From a virus (lineage: Duplodnaviria > Caudoviricetes): a stretch of DNA of 56,987 bases. Positions 2,068 to 45,100 of the stretch are shown here, piece by piece (within the stretch, counting starts at the first letter, position 1; each line of letters opens with the position of its first letter). Where the stretch lies: the IMG/VR virus record IMGVR_UViG_3300021964_000079, positions 1 through 56,987 of that record; one strand, given 5' to 3'. The translations under genes were made by a program, and so were the position numbers. Below the pieces are notes generated by a model. That model ran no database searches. It was not told the DNA's origin and saw nothing but the letters and a program-made list of their open reading frames with translations.

Positions 2068-3336
2068 TTAAGTTTGTGGTTCTGGGTCATAGTTATCTAA
2101 GTATTCATATTCTATGAGTGCTGCAAAACCCCCGAAAGCTTTATTCAAAGATTTGTCTTCCAGAAATCTTCCGGGCCCAAATACGCTATCTTTTCTTACA
2201 GATGCGGGAAATCGTCCATAACATCGAAATACGCCTTTTACGTTGAGAATTTCATTATCAACACTAACAATATTGCCGGGGTGATCTTCCAATAATGATC
2301 CCGGCATAGAGAATATCAATTCTTTCCCATCAACTTTTACGTTTTGAGAACCTGTGCCACCCCCAGATGTATTAATCCACGGATACATATGTGGTCCATA
2401 ATAACTATTATAATGTGTACCGATAATTTTTTGATTAGTCGAACCCTCCTCTGGTACTACGAGAAGGTTTTTCATATTATCTCCAAGGTATAAATAAATA
2501 GCAATTTTGTCTATTGGTTGATTCTTTAATGTAACTTTCAATGAGAATAGTTCACCAAAGCTTCCATCTTTACCAAGATTTGTTATTTGAGATAATTTAA
2601 TCTTCTCTAACACAGATGCTCTTCTATTAGGTATGCCCCCATCAGGAGAAAAGGTTTTTCCTGATCCAACTGGCGCAACATTTACATCTCCTCCAGCTGG
2701 ACTTTTGATTGTTTTATCTGCCTTTACAACTGTTATTGCACCACTATCTTCAGTTGGTGCTTTATTAGTAACCGCATAAGCTTCCGTCTTTTGTTTATTA
2801 TCGGCAACTGCTGCTGTAACAGTTGCATTATCGTTTGATACCGAGGCGGCTTCAGTTACGGCAGGTGCAGCTGCTTGTTTTGGTGCAATAGGTTTTTGCA
2901 CTGCTGGTTCAGTACTCCCCGCATCTTTCTCAAGATTAGGAACGATAGCACAAATATCACCACCACCTGATATTGCCGAGGTAGCACTACTAACAAGACT
3001 ATCCAATTCTAAACCCGCAGCCTTGATGTCATCTTCAAACTCTGTTTTAATTTTTGCAAGAGCAGAAAGAAAAGATGGAGTGCCGGGTATCTGTGAGGCA
3101 AGCCCTGCTATCTCTGCTTGTAAATTTAACTTCGGTAGAGTTGGTATCTCAATTGATTGAAGTTTATCCTTCAGACCCGCAAGTTCATTCTGAGCTTCTC
3201 CAAACGCAGCTGCAGCAGTAGATGCAGCTTCATCAAGTTTTGCCTTTGCGTCTGCTTTCGCATCAGCAAGTTTAGATAGAACATCATTCAGTTCTGGACT
3301 AGCACCACATATATTTGGAATTTTAAAATCAACCAT
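2068..3336 (-). CDS. Hypothetical protein, probably virion-associated (helical N-terminus, Ala/Pro-rich linker)
   Basis: 422-aa ORF directly after PAAR in the baseplate operon. Confidence 0.6.
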   Translation of the reverse strand: MVDFKIPNICGASPELNDVLSKLADAKADAKAKLDEAASTAAAAFGEAQNELAGLKDKLQSIEIPTLPKLNLQAEIAGLASQIPGTPSFLSALAKIKTEFEDDIKAAGLELDSLVSSATSAISGGGDICAIVPNLEKDAGSTEPAVQKPIAPKQAAAPAVTEAASVSNDNATVTAAVADNKQKTEAYAVTNKAPTEDSGAITVVKADKTIKSPAGGDVNVAPVGSGKTFSPDGGIPNRRASVLEKIKLSQITNLGKDGSFGELFSLKVTLKNQPIDKIAIYLYLGDNMKNLLVVPEEGSTNQKIIGTHYNSYYGPHMYPWINTSGGGTGSQNVKVDGKELIFSMPGSLLEDHPGNIVSVDNEILNVKGVFRCYGRFPASVRKDSVFGPGRFLEDKSLNKAFGGFAALIEYEYLDNYDPEPQT

Positions 3337-3337
3337 T

Positions 3338-3601
3338 CTAATCTCCTACCGAAACTGTGCTGGAACCACTTGCAGCATGACCACACGTTGCAAGGTCACC
3401 AGCATTACATACCGCAATACCACCAATAAAAACACTATCAGAACCAGCAATCATAGTTGGTGCATCATGGGGCGAGTCGCCATGTGCTGTGACAGAATCA
3501 CCATGCACAATTACATTTTTACCATTTGCAAACACGGTTGATTGAGATTTAATCAATGCTCCTCCAGCGGCATCGTCTGCATCTCTACATATACCCGGCA
3601 T
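3338..3601 (-). CDS. PAAR-domain spike tip protein (gp5.4-like)
   Basis: 87 aa with repeated TVF.NG..V..GD / CGH PAAR pattern, downstream of gp5. Confidence 0.85.
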   Translation of the reverse strand: MPGICRDADDAAGGALIKSQSTVFANGKNVIVHGDSVTAHGDSPHDAPTMIAGSDSVFIGGIAVCNAGDLATCGHAASGSSTVSVGD

Positions 3602-8799: not shown

Positions 8800-8965
8800 G
8801 GTAGAGAGAGGGGGAATCGAACCCCCTGTTAGGTAGTGTGAGCTACCTTGATATTGTCTCACAAACGATCCTGGCTTCATCCATCCCACTGTCAGCTTCA
8901 GAGCTCTAGCGCTCTTCAGTAGTCAGTCCAACAGGATATATATCATTCACTCGTCCAGACTCTCC
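8800..8965 (-). ncRNA. tRNA-like structured RNA with an enlarged anticodon arm (candidate)
   Basis: Acceptor GGAGAG/CTCTCT + ACC, perfect T-arm GGGGG-TTCGATT-CCCCC, variable-arm hairpin AGGTAG/CTACCT, nested stems TGATAT/ATATCA, ATCCTG/CAGGAT, CTACTG/CAGTGG, GAGC/GCTC; no ORF. Confidence 0.6.
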
Positions 8966-29637: not shown

Positions 29638-29647
29638 TTATATACAG

Positions 29648-29676
29648 AGTATAACAGGTTATTATATATTTGTCAA
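29648..29676 (-). promoter_or_regulatory. Sigma70-like promoter upstream of the hammerhead
   Basis: TTGACA-17 nt-TATACT. Confidence 0.7.
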
Positions 29677-29691
29677 TACTCTTTTTGAATA

Positions 29692-29863
29692 AAGTGGTGG
29701 GTATTCTGTTGCAAGGAACCCACCGAACCCCGAAAGATTATGCTGCTAGAGCGTAATCTCCATAGTTTGCATTATCGTTTGCATTTAGAAATTTGACCAA
29801 TAACGCAGTCATCCGACAATTCTCCACTCATCTATTCCAGCCTGTCGATCCTATTTCGCCCCC
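29692..29863 (-). ncRNA. ssrA: tmRNA coding piece (permuted two-piece ssrA); tag ANDNANYGDYALAA at 29782-29738
   Basis: 5' GGGGGCGAAATAGGATCGAC; resume codon context TAAAT-GCA; tag ends in ALAA; 3' GGTGGGT..GCAACAGAA.ACCCACC motif; 3' boundary approximate. Confidence 0.92.
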
Positions 29864-29864
29864 A

Positions 29865-29999
29865 TCAAAAAGAGATTTTACCATAACCAAGTAACAAGGC
29901 TATGATACCAGAAATGAGAATAATATCAGCGCATACACTCCAAAGAATATATAACTTAAACATAAATACCGATATTTTTTTTACTAGAGGATTCTTCAT
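29865..29999 (-). CDS. 44-aa single-TM protein inside the tmRNA intervening segment
   Basis: AGGAG 6 nt before ATG; MKNPLVKKISVFMFKLYILWSVCADIILISGIIALLLGYGKISF; stop 1 nt before tmRNA G1. Confidence 0.6.
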   Translation of the reverse strand: MKNPLVKKISVFMFKLYILWSVCADIILISGIIALLLGYGKISF

Positions 30000-30040
30000 C
30001 TGAATCTCCTGATATCATCTCTTTCATGACAATCTCCTTT

Positions 30041-30104
30041 TGGTGGAGGCGGGGGGTATCGCACCCCCGTCCAGTTCTGTATTCAATTCGTATCATCAAA
30101 TTGT
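30041..30104 (-). ncRNA. ssrA: tmRNA acceptor piece (3' half of the tRNA-like domain with CCA)
   Basis: GGACGGGGGTGCGATACCCCCCGCCTCCACCA; CGCCTCC pairs with GGGGGCG giving G3-U70 and A73; 5' boundary approximate. Confidence 0.9.
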
Positions 30105-30110
30105 ATCTTA

Positions 30111-30139
30111 TATATAACACACGGGGATTAATAAGTCAA
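30111..30139 (-). promoter_or_regulatory. Sigma70-like promoter for tmRNA
   Basis: TTGACT-17 nt-TATATA. Confidence 0.55.
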
Positions 30140-41285: not shown

Positions 41286-41489
41286 TTAATATCCCTGTTC
41301 TTCCATTCGCTTTTCAAGATTACGTTTCTGCCGTCGTTTAGAGGCAGCACGTTCGTGTCGCTTCTTCTCACCCTTCGATGTGTAAAACTCTCGTTCTCGC
41401 AGTTCATTAAAGAACCCATCTTCGGTGAGCTTCTTCTTTAGAATCCTCATCGCCTTTTCAACATTATTATTACGCACTTCAACTTTCAC
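41286..41489 (-). CDS. rpsU: Ribosomal protein bS21
   Basis: V.VRNNNVEKA.R.LKKK...G...ELR.REFY.S..EK.R. Confidence 0.9.
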   Translation of the reverse strand: MKVEVRNNNVEKAMRILKKKLTEDGFFNELREREFYTSKGEKKRHERAASKRRQKRNLEKRMEEQGY

Positions 41490-41878
41490 ACCAATTCTCC
41501 TTCTTTTGAATAGTATACACTCTTTAGGTCAAATAAGTCAATGCACTTTTTGCATCCACTACATGGTTTTGACATACCAGTAATCCATTTTCTGTTCGCC
41601 TTATCTCTCTTTGCCCTTACAATATATAGTTCGCACTTAGACAAGTCTTCTACATCAATTGACTTGAGTGCATTCTTGATTGCATGGACCTCTGCATGAA
41701 AAAACACTGCATGATTGTTCTTGCAAAATTGAGCCTGAAAGGGGTGTGTCTTTTTATGATTGTATCCATAGGAAACCACCTTGCCCTTGCGTACCACTGC
41801 CGCAGCAATCCTTGCACCACGAACAGGTTCTACTGACTGTGCAAGCTTGAAAGTATCATCGAAGATTTCAGTGATCAT
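41486..41878 (-). CDS. Zinc-dependent cytidine/nucleotide deaminase family protein
   Basis: HAEVHAI and KPCSGC motifs. Confidence 0.8.
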   Translation of the reverse strand: MITEIFDDTFKLAQSVEPVRGARIAAAVVRKGKVVSYGYNHKKTHPFQAQFCKNNHAVFFHAEVHAIKNALKSIDVEDLSKCELYIVRAKRDKANRKWITGMSKPCSGCKKCIDLFDLKSVYYSKEGELV

Positions 41879-42252
41879 CCTCGCCTCATCTTTGCAACTT
41901 CTTCAGCAGACTTCTTGTTTCGTACCGGCACAGCATTGGACTTGTGCATCTGTGCGATACCTATAATCTCAGTGCCAGTATAAACATTCTCTTCTTTCTT
42001 TGACATAGAAGAATTGTAAGTAGGTTTGCAGGACTCTAATTTGGCGCACTCGACAGGACTCGAACCTGTGACCCACGGCTTAGAAGGCCGTTGCTCTGTT
42101 CCAGCTGAGCTACGAGTGCCTATACCCATCTTCTTGAGAAACTTTGCGTGTTGACGCTCTGCCTCTAGGACAGAGGCCGACTTCTTTTTCTGTTTGCGCT
42201 TGCGAGTATTCGTAGTCGAATAATACACAGGCAATAAATGCATACCGCTCAT
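41875..42252 (-). CDS. Conserved T4-like hypothetical protein containing a nested tRNA
   Basis: MHLLPVYY... and YTG....GIA.MHKSNAVPV...A.MRR motifs flank the tRNA-coding stretch. Confidence 0.7.
   Translation of the reverse strand: MSGMHLLPVYYSTTNTRKRKQKKKSASVLEAERQHAKFLKKMGIGTRSSAGTEQRPSKPWVTGSSPVECAKLESCKPTYNSSMSKKEENVYTGTEIIGIAQMHKSNAVPVRNKKSAEEVAKMRRG
42042..42119 (-). tRNA. tRNA-Arg(UCU), nested within a CDS on the same strand
   Basis: GCACTCG/CGAGTGC acceptor, GCTC/GAGC D-stem, ACGGC-CTTCTAA-GCCGT, ACAGG-TTCGAGT-CCTGT, G-CCA end. Confidence 0.93.
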
Positions 42253-42258
42253 TATATA

Positions 42259-42287
42259 ACTATAAACTAATTTTTAGGATTTGTCAA
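42259..42287 (-). promoter_or_regulatory. Sigma70-like promoter (gives a near-leaderless mRNA for the tRNA-containing ORF)
   Basis: TTGACA-17 nt-TATAGT; ATG 6 nt downstream. Confidence 0.65.
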
Positions 42288-42519
42288 GGTCTTTTATCAC
42301 ATCTTCAATAAGAACAAGCTCCTTGTCGCCATCCTTATCCATTTTGGTCTTAATATAACCCTCTGATTCGAGAGTTTCAAGCATCGATTCTACAACATCC
42401 TCAATCTTTGGATTCCTAAAATAATTTCCTGCAAAATATGCAGCACCGATAACACCCATTGCAAGGGCTGTGTGAAGGTATACATCCATAATCATATTTA
42501 TATCTTTCCTTAGAACCAA
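42274..42519 (-). CDS. Small membrane-anchored hypothetical protein
   Basis: One TM segment; promoter TTGACA/TATAGT at 42559-42531. Confidence 0.55.
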   Translation of the reverse strand: MVLRKDINMIMDVYLHTALAMGVIGAAYFAGNYFRNPKIEDVVESMLETLESEGYIKTKMDKDGDKELVLIEDVIKDLDKS

Positions 42520-42578
42520 TCTACAAGCATACTATACACTAAAAATTGACCCCTGTCAAGACATTTCTTTGATTTTTT

Positions 42579-44630
42579 TTATTTAGTTGTGGCTATGAAC
42601 ACACCGTTCCAATCTTTGTCTAGTGGCTGGGTCTTCATGAACTCACACCTTTCTATCCACATAGTATAGTAGTTTCTCATTTTACCATCAAATTCATTCA
42701 TCAGATCATTGCATAGACGAATGGCATGGTCAAATTGTTGATTGCTATAATACTCGTGCATTCTTTCATGCTGGTTTTCTGCCATACCCCAATTGGTATT
42801 CTTCATCATCCAATCCATTTCACTCAGGACGGTGTAGATACGAATACCGATGGTCTTACCCTTCACTGCCAGTTCATCAACCTTGAGATAGAAGAAGTCA
42901 TTCTTAGTCAAGTCATATGTGGATTCGCCTACTAACAGCAGACAACCATATTCCTTACACTTGCTCTCAATCCTAGCAGCAGTCGATACTGCATCTCCTA
43001 GAACATCGTAGCTGTGTCGCATAGTAGAACCCATCTCTCCAAGATAACCAAGGCCGGTGTTGATACCCGCACCCATTCCTATAGGTGGTTTACCTTCTGC
43101 AACGATCTTGTCGTTAAACTTTACTACTGCATCTAACATCTGTAGTCCAGTTTTGACTGCGCTCCTTGGATGGTCTGGGTCATCTATAGGTGCATTATGA
43201 ATATGCATACTCGCATCACCGATATATTTGATCACCATGCCATTTGAATCTAAAATAGGTTGTGTGATTGCATCCATATACCCATTCATGATTTCAGTAA
43301 GACCCTTGACATCATCACCAAAACTCTCACCCAACGGTGTGAACCCACGAAGGTCAGAGAAGCAAATGCTGATCTCCTTCTTCATACCATCTTTAATAAG
43401 AGAAGGGTTCTCCTGTAGCATACGCACAACTGTAGGTGATGCATACCCTGCGAACTGTTTCTTGATCTCCATCTTCTCCTTATATTCTTCCATGAACCGT
43501 AAGAACGCAGCAATGGCCCAGACCACAAACATAGTAAGGACGGGATATGACCAATCCACTAGATAACTGTACTCTGTAAAGAGGTAGGACGACCCGTAGA
43601 ACGATCCAACAAGAAAAATGGGTAGTAATACTGCCCCAAAATACCATGCGAGTGTGAGAACCACTGATGCTAAGATCAATGCACCCACTCCACTGACTGC
43701 AAGTTCAGCAAGGTCAGTCCAAAATGGTCTGGTTATATTGCGTCCTGTCATCATGGTAGCAAGTGATGCACCTATAAGATTATGCGACTGTATGACCCCC
43801 ACAGGGGTTGCTACGGGACTTTCTAGACCAGAAGCAGTCATACTCAGTATAACGATCTTACCTGTGAGGTCTGGTAATTTCTCATGTAATGCATACACTG
43901 GTGTCTTCCATTTGAAGTCCAACCAGATATTACCATTAGCATCTGTGTCAATCATTTTGTATTTGGGTATGCGTAGTTTCTCCACACCAGCAATACCTGT
44001 CTTCATCTGAAACGATATATCCCCCGCAGCCATGCGTAGGATTTCCATACTGATAGATGGATACAACTTCCCGCCCACTGCAACAACCAAAGGCATACGA
44101 CGAACCACACCATCTTTCTCTGGTGCGATTACCATCATACCAACCGCATTGGCACTCTTTGCCAGTTCTGGAATAGGACCAACCACGCCGGGGTAACTGT
44201 ATACCCACGGTTGCCAGTCTTCTCCAACAGTTGCAACACCACGAACCACACCAGTGTTACTCTTGTCGTTGCTGGGTATCTGTCCTATAACCGTAGGAGT
44301 CTTTTTGAGTATTCTGGCAAGTGCATCATCTTTACCAAATCTGTCTGGGTCTGCAAATAGAATAGGGACAACCACGATAGAGGCACCAGCCTGATAGAGT
44401 TCTATAATTTTGTTTGCAACCCTGTTTCGATCCCACGGCCACTGACCTAGTTTTCTGATTGTTTGATTATTGATCTCTACCGTAGCAAGGTTAGAGAGAG
44501 TCAGAGACTCCTGATTACGTTGGTGTTGGTCTAGTGCTTTGAGTCGCACCATGTCCAAAAACCACGGGTCTGCAAAACGCAATCCACATAATACTAAAAT
44601 CACTGATAATGATATAATCCACTTTTTCAT
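42579..44630 (-). CDS. CHASE2-domain class III adenylate cyclase
   Basis: GQWPWDR and DGVVRR (CHASE2), three TM helices, FSDLRGFT, KYIGDA, GINTG, YDVLGDAVSTAARIES. Confidence 0.92.
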   Translation of the reverse strand: MKKWIISLSVILVLCGLRFADPWFLDMVRLKALDQHQRNQESLTLSNLATVEINNQTIRKLGQWPWDRNRVANKIIELYQAGASIVVVPILFADPDRFGKDDALARILKKTPTVIGQIPSNDKSNTGVVRGVATVGEDWQPWVYSYPGVVGPIPELAKSANAVGMMVIAPEKDGVVRRMPLVVAVGGKLYPSISMEILRMAAGDISFQMKTGIAGVEKLRIPKYKMIDTDANGNIWLDFKWKTPVYALHEKLPDLTGKIVILSMTASGLESPVATPVGVIQSHNLIGASLATMMTGRNITRPFWTDLAELAVSGVGALILASVVLTLAWYFGAVLLPIFLVGSFYGSSYLFTEYSYLVDWSYPVLTMFVVWAIAAFLRFMEEYKEKMEIKKQFAGYASPTVVRMLQENPSLIKDGMKKEISICFSDLRGFTPLGESFGDDVKGLTEIMNGYMDAITQPILDSNGMVIKYIGDASMHIHNAPIDDPDHPRSAVKTGLQMLDAVVKFNDKIVAEGKPPIGMGAGINTGLGYLGEMGSTMRHSYDVLGDAVSTAARIESKCKEYGCLLLVGESTYDLTKNDFFYLKVDELAVKGKTIGIRIYTVLSEMDWMMKNTNWGMAENQHERMHEYYSNQQFDHAIRLCNDLMNEFDGKMRNYYTMWIERCEFMKTQPLDKDWNGVFIATTK

Positions 44631-45100
44631 AGCGCCGCCACACAATTTCTAAAATATATCATCTCATCGTCTAAATCTTCTTCAAATATGTATATAAAAA
44701 AATTATCCATAATATCTATCCATTCAGATGTTTGTATATTATTTAGGTATGTCCACGGCCCGTGGACATGTTGTGATAAGTCAATTGACAATTCCCCACT
44801 GCCTTTAACTTTTTTTGCAATACCTTCAACCTCTTTTAAAACTCTTTCTTTAGGACAATGTTCAAGTGAAGCATATGAAATCCATTTATCTGCTAAAGGA
44901 ATATCTATGTCATCACTCCAATAATTATAATATGTTTTGTCTACAACTTTAATATATTCTGGTGTGAAATGAAAATCTCGGCTCTTACAGTCTATTGCAA
45001 TTGTTCTATAACCTTCTTTTTTCGCTTTTGTAATACTATATGGGATAGTTTCTAACCCTCTCATATTACATGGGGCGCCAAACTCAATAAATGTTTTCAT
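44627..45100 (-). CDS. Hypothetical protein, possibly a truncated SAM methyltransferase fold; AT-rich
   Basis: IEFGA...IAIDC...SYASLEHC. Confidence 0.5.
   Translation of the reverse strand: MKTFIEFGAPCNMRGLETIPYSITKAKKEGYRTIAIDCKSRDFHFTPEYIKVVDKTYYNYWSDDIDIPLADKWISYASLEHCPKERVLKEVEGIAKKVKGSGELSIDLSQHVHGPWTYLNNIQTSEWIDIMDNFFIYIFEEDLDDEMIYFRNCVAAL

Follow-up and report, generated by a model that had tools for sequence, protein, structure and literature searches.

The closest described precedent for a tRNA gene nested in a phage protein gene is the tRNA-Sec gene (selC) nested inside the selB ORF of Alphaproteobacteria, which its author presents as the first nested tRNA in a protein ORF in bacteria (PMC8124441). 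In that system, an entire tRNA lies on the sense strand of the ORF without introducing a stop codon, the ORF overlaps the start of the next ORF, and remnant tRNAs are retained as coding sequence in some lineages. It was also hypothesized that folding and processing of the tRNA competes with expression of the full-length protein. Fully nested tRNA genes in direct orientation, one transcript serving both products, have also been noted in protein genes of compact animal mitochondrial genomes, where they are ascribed to extreme genome compaction and involve reduced tRNAs (cited in PMC8124441). Here, we describe a marine phage gene for a small protein that carries a complete tRNA gene in frame in its middle, and show that related phages carry one to three tRNAs at the same place.

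A tRNA-Arg(UCU) gene lies in frame within a phage ORF

The DNA analysed here (hereafter the window) is a linear virus record of 56,987 bases (IMG/VR record IMGVR_UViG_3300021964_000079), with an estimated completeness of 36%. On its minus strand, an ORF of 125 amino acids was found at 41875..42252 (-). ARAGORN identified a 78-nt tRNA-Arg with anticodon tct at 42042..42119 (-), on the same strand as the ORF, and the Rfam tRNA model RF00005 scored it 69 bits against a gathering score of 29, at 42045..42119 and over model positions 1-71 of 71. From these coordinates, the tRNA occupies ORF nucleotides 134-211, from codon 45 position 2 to codon 71 position 1. It ends in GCCA, CCA being therefore encoded, and its 78 nt equal 26 codons and add no stop. 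The initial annotation, which had reported an intact tRNA-Arg(UCU) nested in frame within this ORF, was thus correct as written. Nesting is not a general feature of this phage, as the other confirmed tRNA of the window (tRNA-Thr) and a tRNA-His called by ARAGORN only both lie in intergenic gaps.

The flanks of the tRNA belong to a conserved phage protein family

We next asked whether the ORF was a genuine protein gene, since a spurious open frame or an assembly artefact would leave only a tRNA with non-coding flanks. Searches of Pfam, NCBIfam and the PDB (sequence profile) gave no match. However, the ORF matched phage family phrog_27048, of unknown function, from residue 4 to residue 124 against profile positions 3-127 of 127 (E 5.6e-17), the match thus covering both sides of the tRNA. 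The same match was obtained in a search of the genome, with no stops inside (E 2.4e-18). The family occurs in T4-like and other large myophages, namely Methylophilales phage Melnitz (taxonomy line Kyanoviridae), Acidovorax phage ACP17 and Delftia phage PhiW-14. In ACP17 (113 aa) and PhiW-14 (gp114, 131 aa), the protein is encoded as one continuous chain without any tRNA at this place. Four sequenced isolates of Melnitz matched over residues 1-100, and in the one record examined the homologous annotated CDS (locus_tag _124, 147 aa) starts with the same N-terminus and holds a different tRNA, tRNA-Trp(CCA), in frame at the same place. By contrast, tblastn hits to many Klebsiella and Escherichia phages covered only the tRNA-coded residues; these are translated tRNA-Arg genes and not homologues of the protein.

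The N-half of the protein (codons 1-44, 42121..42252 (-)) contains a conserved M-x-x-MHLLPVYY start, a basic KRK stretch and a predicted helix. The C-half (codons 83-125, 41878..42006 (-)) contains a conserved YTG...GIAxMHKSNAVPV...MRR(G) block, predicted as a beta-hairpin plus helix. In a 70-sequence alignment, columns M4, Y91, T92, G93, G98, I99, M102-N106, P109, M122 and R124 were nearly invariant. The tRNA-coded residues and the spacer that follows the tRNA 3' end (42007..42041 (-)) form part of a linker whose length and sequence vary between homologues. AlphaFold2 predicted this linker to be disordered (pLDDT below 50 for residues 50-80), between a helix (residues 26-41, pLDDT about 90) and a hairpin plus helix (residues 98-123), although the model is weak overall (pLDDT 67.6, pTM 0.26). 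In addition, the ESM Atlas returned only virus "hypothetical protein" clusters at 0.80-0.82, Foldseek against the PDB returned nothing at E<=0.001, and BFVD returned only uncharacterised phage proteins, so that no family or fold match gives the protein a function. These results support the initial annotation, which had taken the flanks for a protein family of T4-like phages with a variable linker in the middle. Together with the comparative data below, they refute the possibility of a spurious ORF.

Related phages carry one to three nested tRNAs without breaking the reading frame

To assess how widespread this arrangement is, we scanned IMG/VR with a four-protein alignment, which confirmed 275 relatives, of which the best 80 were retrieved. 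Because a full-length query could favour intact copies, a second scan was performed using an alignment of N-halves only, which confirmed 274 relatives, again with the best 80 retrieved. With the window and Melnitz, this gave 162 loci and 127 distinct ORF sequences. Of these, 41 have no nested tRNA, whereas 86 carry one to three nested tRNAs in 13 arrangements: Arg (27), Pro (14), Arg+Pro (11), Ala+Pro (8), Trp (5), Arg+Met (5), Ala (4), Ala+Thr (4), Arg+Ala (3), Thr (2), Ile+Pro (1), Met+Pro (1) and Ala+Leu+Thr (1). Among the 86, 81 show both conserved halves in one uninterrupted frame, 4 are cut by a contig end and 1 runs through its tRNA into an unrelated C-terminus. None of the 86 has a stop or a frameshift, and in no relative among the 127 distinct ORFs are the two halves separate genes, although broken copies may exist among the relatives that were not retrieved. 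Rfam confirmed 23 nested tRNAs in 14 of the 16 loci submitted, at 34.8-73.5 bits; the two loci without a hit are relics.

One open frame over one tRNA is not rare, and the tRNA of the window itself has 2 of 3 phases free of stops. The comparative pattern, however, is far beyond chance. The 69 distinct nested tRNA sequences, in 10 tRNA classes, have on average 1.41 stop-free phases out of 3, many having only one, yet all 69 are read in a stop-free phase, and all 69 encode CCA. Tandem tRNAs are 2-9 nt apart, with spacer lengths that move the frame from the open phase of one tRNA to the open phase of the next, and the C-half returns to the frame of the N-half in all 13 arrangements. Treating the 10 tRNA classes and 10-13 arrangements as independent gave rough odds of 2e-9 to 8e-11. 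The loci are related and the counts are not independent events, so this is an overstatement, but the direction is clear.

The tRNA and both protein halves are under selection

A tRNA that once landed in the linker could now serve only as coding sequence. Such relics do exist in relatives and stay in frame (loci L030, L032 and L154 of our survey): L030 keeps 62 of 77 bases of tRNA-Pro with a 3-nt insertion and is no longer called by ARAGORN or Rfam, while L032 keeps the last 30 nt of tRNA-Arg. One nested tRNA-Thr also scores only 34.8 bits. We therefore examined 13 distinct tRNA-Arg sequences homologous to that of the window. Over 21 pairs, 99.6% of cells were paired and 4 pairs had changed on both sides; the covariation score was 0.143 against 0.066 in shuffles (0 of 500 reached it), and slid controls gave 20-46% paired. 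Mean column identity across these sequences was 95%, whereas synonymous sites of the flanks differed at pS 0.58-0.64. The tRNA thus keeps its cloverleaf through compensatory changes and is far more conserved than the synonymous sites beside it, making it very unlikely that the tRNA of the window, with its score of 69 bits, is a dead relic.

Both protein halves were found to be under purifying selection, with dN/dS values of 0.147 for the N-half (23 distinct sequences) and 0.103 for the C-half (19 distinct sequences), and third codon positions dominated the differences. These sets were not filtered by tRNA cargo. We also considered whether the ORF avoids the codon read by its own tRNA. While tRNA-Arg carriers used AGA in 0 of 106 N-half Arg codons, ORFs with other cargo also used mostly CGC or CGT (90 of 106), indicating a clade trait that is not tied to the cargo.

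The comparative data favour read-through of the tRNA

We investigated the possibility that the two halves are made as separate small peptides, or that the frame stays open only so that ribosomes keep moving to the downstream genes, through coupling or protection from polarity. An in-frame ATG between the last tRNA and the C-block is present in 57 of 85 tRNA-bearing ORFs, the window among them. In the window, this ATG at codon 83 could start a separate 43-aa C-half, and such a product cannot be excluded for it alone. However, 13 of the 85 ORFs have no in-frame ATG, GTG or TTG in this interval, and another 15 have only GTG or TTG. The C-half is nonetheless conserved as protein, and tRNA-less homologues are single continuous proteins. 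Moreover, transit alone would not require the C-half to be in the frame of the N-half with its protein sequence conserved. This alternative therefore appears unlikely, though less so than the others considered here.

Alternatively, the tRNA could behave like an intron, being cut out and the two mRNA pieces rejoined by an RNA ligase, so that the protein lacks the tRNA-coded residues. The tRNA of the window (78 nt) and the Arg+Met cargo with its 6-nt spacer are multiples of three, as this would require. In contrast, tRNA-Pro (77 nt), Ala (76), Thr (76 and 79), Trp (74) and Leu (85) are not, and precise excision would therefore break the frame, while the contiguous frame is always open, which is what selection on read-through predicts. 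No RNA contig joining the N-half directly to the C-half at the tRNA borders was listed, although contigs are a poor test of this. Excision and rejoining is thus very unlikely.

Marine metatranscriptome contigs cover the locus, and one of them (41975-42174) bridges the tRNA with 55-67 nt on each side. This is weak support at best, since contigs show neither transcript ends nor strand and DNA carried into RNA libraries cannot be excluded. In addition, the high depth over the tRNA comes from tRNA contigs of other organisms, as shown by loose ends at 42051-42056 and 42097.

The tRNA content of the linker turns over quickly

Two loci whose flanks are 98-99% identical in DNA carry different cargo, Arg+Pro in one and Pro in the other, and two sets of identical flank proteins fall in more than one cargo group. 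On a tree built from the flanks, the cargo label needs 32 changes where 13 is the minimum, whereas presence or absence of any tRNA needs only 4. This tree has 114 rows and only 87 columns and is weakly resolved, but it suggests that the slot was probably colonised rarely and then reshuffled often. In a marine clade of Melnitz-like myophages, the linker acts as a slot whose tRNA content changes in multiples of three bases and in a stop-free phase. The tRNA-Arg(tct) that Melnitz carries next to bS21 is intergenic, not nested.

Genomic context and inferred fates of the transcript

A consensus scan revealed a sigma-70-like promoter at 42259..42287 (-) (TTGACA, 17 nt, TATAGT; 11 of 12 matches), whose second hexamer ends 6 nt before the ATG of the ORF, so that the mRNA would be leaderless or nearly so. 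The same arrangement ends 4-9 nt before the start ATG in 44 of 79 tRNA-bearing distinct ORFs, against 1 of 35 tRNA-less ones, while more distant relatives instead have AGGAG-like sites before the same start. The transcription start is inferred only. One metatranscriptome contig ends at 42252, which fits the predicted start, but two others run upstream of it, to 42339 and 42284, and the promoter and leaderless reading is therefore not supported by them.

Downstream, the TGA of the ORF (41875-41877) overlaps the ATG (41878-41876) of a 130-aa cytidine/dCMP-type deaminase at 41486..41878 (-) (PF00383, E 1.1e-11), forming an ATGA that suggests translational coupling. The stop of the deaminase gene in turn overlaps the start of a gene encoding ribosomal protein bS21 at 41286..41489 (-) (PF01165, E 6.6e-14). 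In many relatives, bS21 follows directly and the last codons of the ORF supply an AGGAG-like site. A bS21 gene lies in the retrieved locus of 71 of 86 tRNA-bearing distinct ORFs, against 1 of 41 tRNA-less ones.

Taken together, these data are best explained by a dual-use gene, in which one stretch of DNA on one strand encodes both a small basic phage protein and, inside its predicted disordered inter-domain linker, an intact tRNA-Arg(UCU). We estimate the probability of this reading at about 0.8, given that it rests on comparison, without direct evidence of translation, of the fused protein or of mature tRNA from this locus. From this we infer a transcript with two mutually exclusive fates. 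In the first, ribosomes read through, producing the full-length protein with the tRNA read as about 26 flexible residues, and pass by coupling into the deaminase and bS21 genes. In the second, the tRNA folds and is cut out by RNase P and the 3'-processing enzymes, which yields mature tRNA and severs the message. That one transcript gives either protein or tRNA, and that RNase P cleavage silences the gene and reshapes the deaminase-bS21 message, was proposed in the initial annotation and follows logically from both products being under selection on one strand, but remains an inference. The 3' piece would still carry the downstream genes, and the 5' piece would be a non-stop mRNA, a substrate for tmRNA; this phage encodes its own tmRNA, although the link is speculation.

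More tentatively, the linker could be a dedicated, exchangeable tRNA cassette site whose conserved protein-coding flanks serve as recombination anchors, with in-frame nesting as a regulatory device. Each transcript would be partitioned between ribosomes and RNase P, more transcripts maturing into tRNAs when translation is slow or ribosomes are scarce, and more protein and coupled bS21 being made when translation is brisk, with cleaved 5' pieces feeding the phage tmRNA. Such a self-balancing module for taking over host translation is not excluded by our data but remains doubtful.

Comparison with known nested tRNAs

To our knowledge, based on full-text literature searches, this would be the first phage case of complete tRNA genes kept in frame inside a selected protein gene. 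On this reading, tRNA sequence can double as protein linker under simultaneous RNA-level and protein-level selection, and the locus offers a natural system for studying competition between translation and RNA processing on one transcript. Phage Melnitz and its OM43 host are in culture, making the Melnitz gene an experimental system; its cargo is tRNA-Trp(CCA) and its C-terminal block is a variant (AYNKG type). The Melnitz paper lists this tRNA as gene 125 (PMC9004378), but the passages retrieved, which did not include the supplementary tRNA list (Table S2) where the overlap might be noted, do not mention that it lies inside gene 124. The nested gene points to a blind spot in annotation: pipelines that forbid CDS-tRNA overlaps drop one of the two genes, and the Melnitz GenBank record shows no tRNA feature at this site.

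Compared with the tRNA genes integrated in mitochondrial protein genes, the nested phage tRNAs are full-size with encoded CCA. The phage gene shares with selB/selC the sense-strand nesting of an entire tRNA without a stop, the overlap with the start of the next gene, the in-frame relics and the idea that translation and tRNA processing compete (PMC8124441). In selB, however, a single, fixed tRNA sits in a C-terminal extension of the very factor that binds it. In the phage gene, the tRNA lies between two conserved domains of a protein with no known link to tRNA, and the slot holds 10 tRNA classes in 13 arrangements of one to three tRNAs, with no one-to-one partnership between tRNA and protein and with fast turnover of the cargo.

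Variation in the halves of the protein and in their tRNA cargo

We examined how the two halves of the protein and the nested tRNAs are combined among the related viral loci. A second C-terminal variant of the family, of the AYNKG type in place of MHKSN, was found to occur with several cargos, namely Ala+Pro, Pro, Arg, Trp and none (loci L038, L101-L103, L129, L133, L139, L051-L058 and L154-L164 of the survey). This implies that N-halves, cargo and C-halves are shuffled by recombination. In addition, one ORF (locus L124, positions 1201-1560) has the window-type N-half and tRNA-Arg, but an unrelated C-terminus replaces the conserved block, and this was the only such case among 86 tRNA-bearing ORFs. 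Interestingly, the nested "tRNA-Ile(tat)" called by ARAGORN in locus L037 (positions 2625-2717) is 93 nt long and was scored by Rfam at 57.5 bits over 90 nt. It may hold an insertion or an unusually long arm, and it is still read in frame.

The codon usage of the two halves was also compared and proved to be asymmetric. The N-halves of ORFs carrying tRNA-Arg (42121..42252 (-) in the window, and relatives) use only CGC (56) and CGT (50) for Arg, and never AGA or AGG, while the C-halves use AGA and AGG freely. Long ORFs of the window use AGA for 28% of Arg codons. ORFs with other cargo show nearly the same pattern, so it is a clade trait, of unknown meaning.

Genes and promoter-like sites around the tRNA-bearing ORF

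In the window, the deaminase and bS21 genes together occupy 41286..41878 (-). In many relatives, however, bS21 follows the tRNA-bearing ORF directly (as in loci L016-L019 and L027-L029), and the 130-aa deaminase sits downstream of the ORF in only 26 of 86 tRNA-bearing distinct ORFs. The deaminase thus looks like an insertion into a tRNA-bS21 module. A second copy of the promoter-like site found before the tRNA-bearing ORF (TTGACA, 17 nt, TATAGT) lies at 42531..42559 (-), before the 81-aa ORF 42274..42519, suggesting a series of small early genes, each with its own promoter.

Other RNA genes of the window and comparison with phage Melnitz

The phage encodes a two-piece (permuted, alphaproteobacterial-type) tmRNA at 29647..30133 (-), with the tag peptide ANDNANYGDYALAA. 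It was called by ARAGORN and matched by Rfam models RF04321 at 116.9 bits and RF01849 at 115.1 bits. This tmRNA could possibly rescue ribosomes on the non-stop fragments that tRNA excision would create. ARAGORN also calls a 91-nt tRNA-His(gtg) at 8800..8890 (-), in an intergenic gap, but Rfam finds no tRNA there at the gathering score, and it is either an unusual tRNA or a false call.

Comparison with phage Melnitz showed how such an overlap can be missed. The GenBank record of Melnitz-3 (MZ577098.1) skips locus_tag _125 and shows no tRNA feature inside CDS _124 (positions 3001-3444 of our locus L001), although both ARAGORN and Rfam find tRNA-Trp there and the tRNA is counted as gene 125 in the published description (PMC9004378). 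The annotation has hidden the overlap. A further point of comparison with Melnitz is a 688-aa CHASE2 plus adenylate/guanylate cyclase protein encoded at 42579..44645 (-) in the window. The first ~400 bases of its coding sequence are 66% identical in DNA to the Melnitz cyclase gene, which in Melnitz sits beside curlin-repeat genes.
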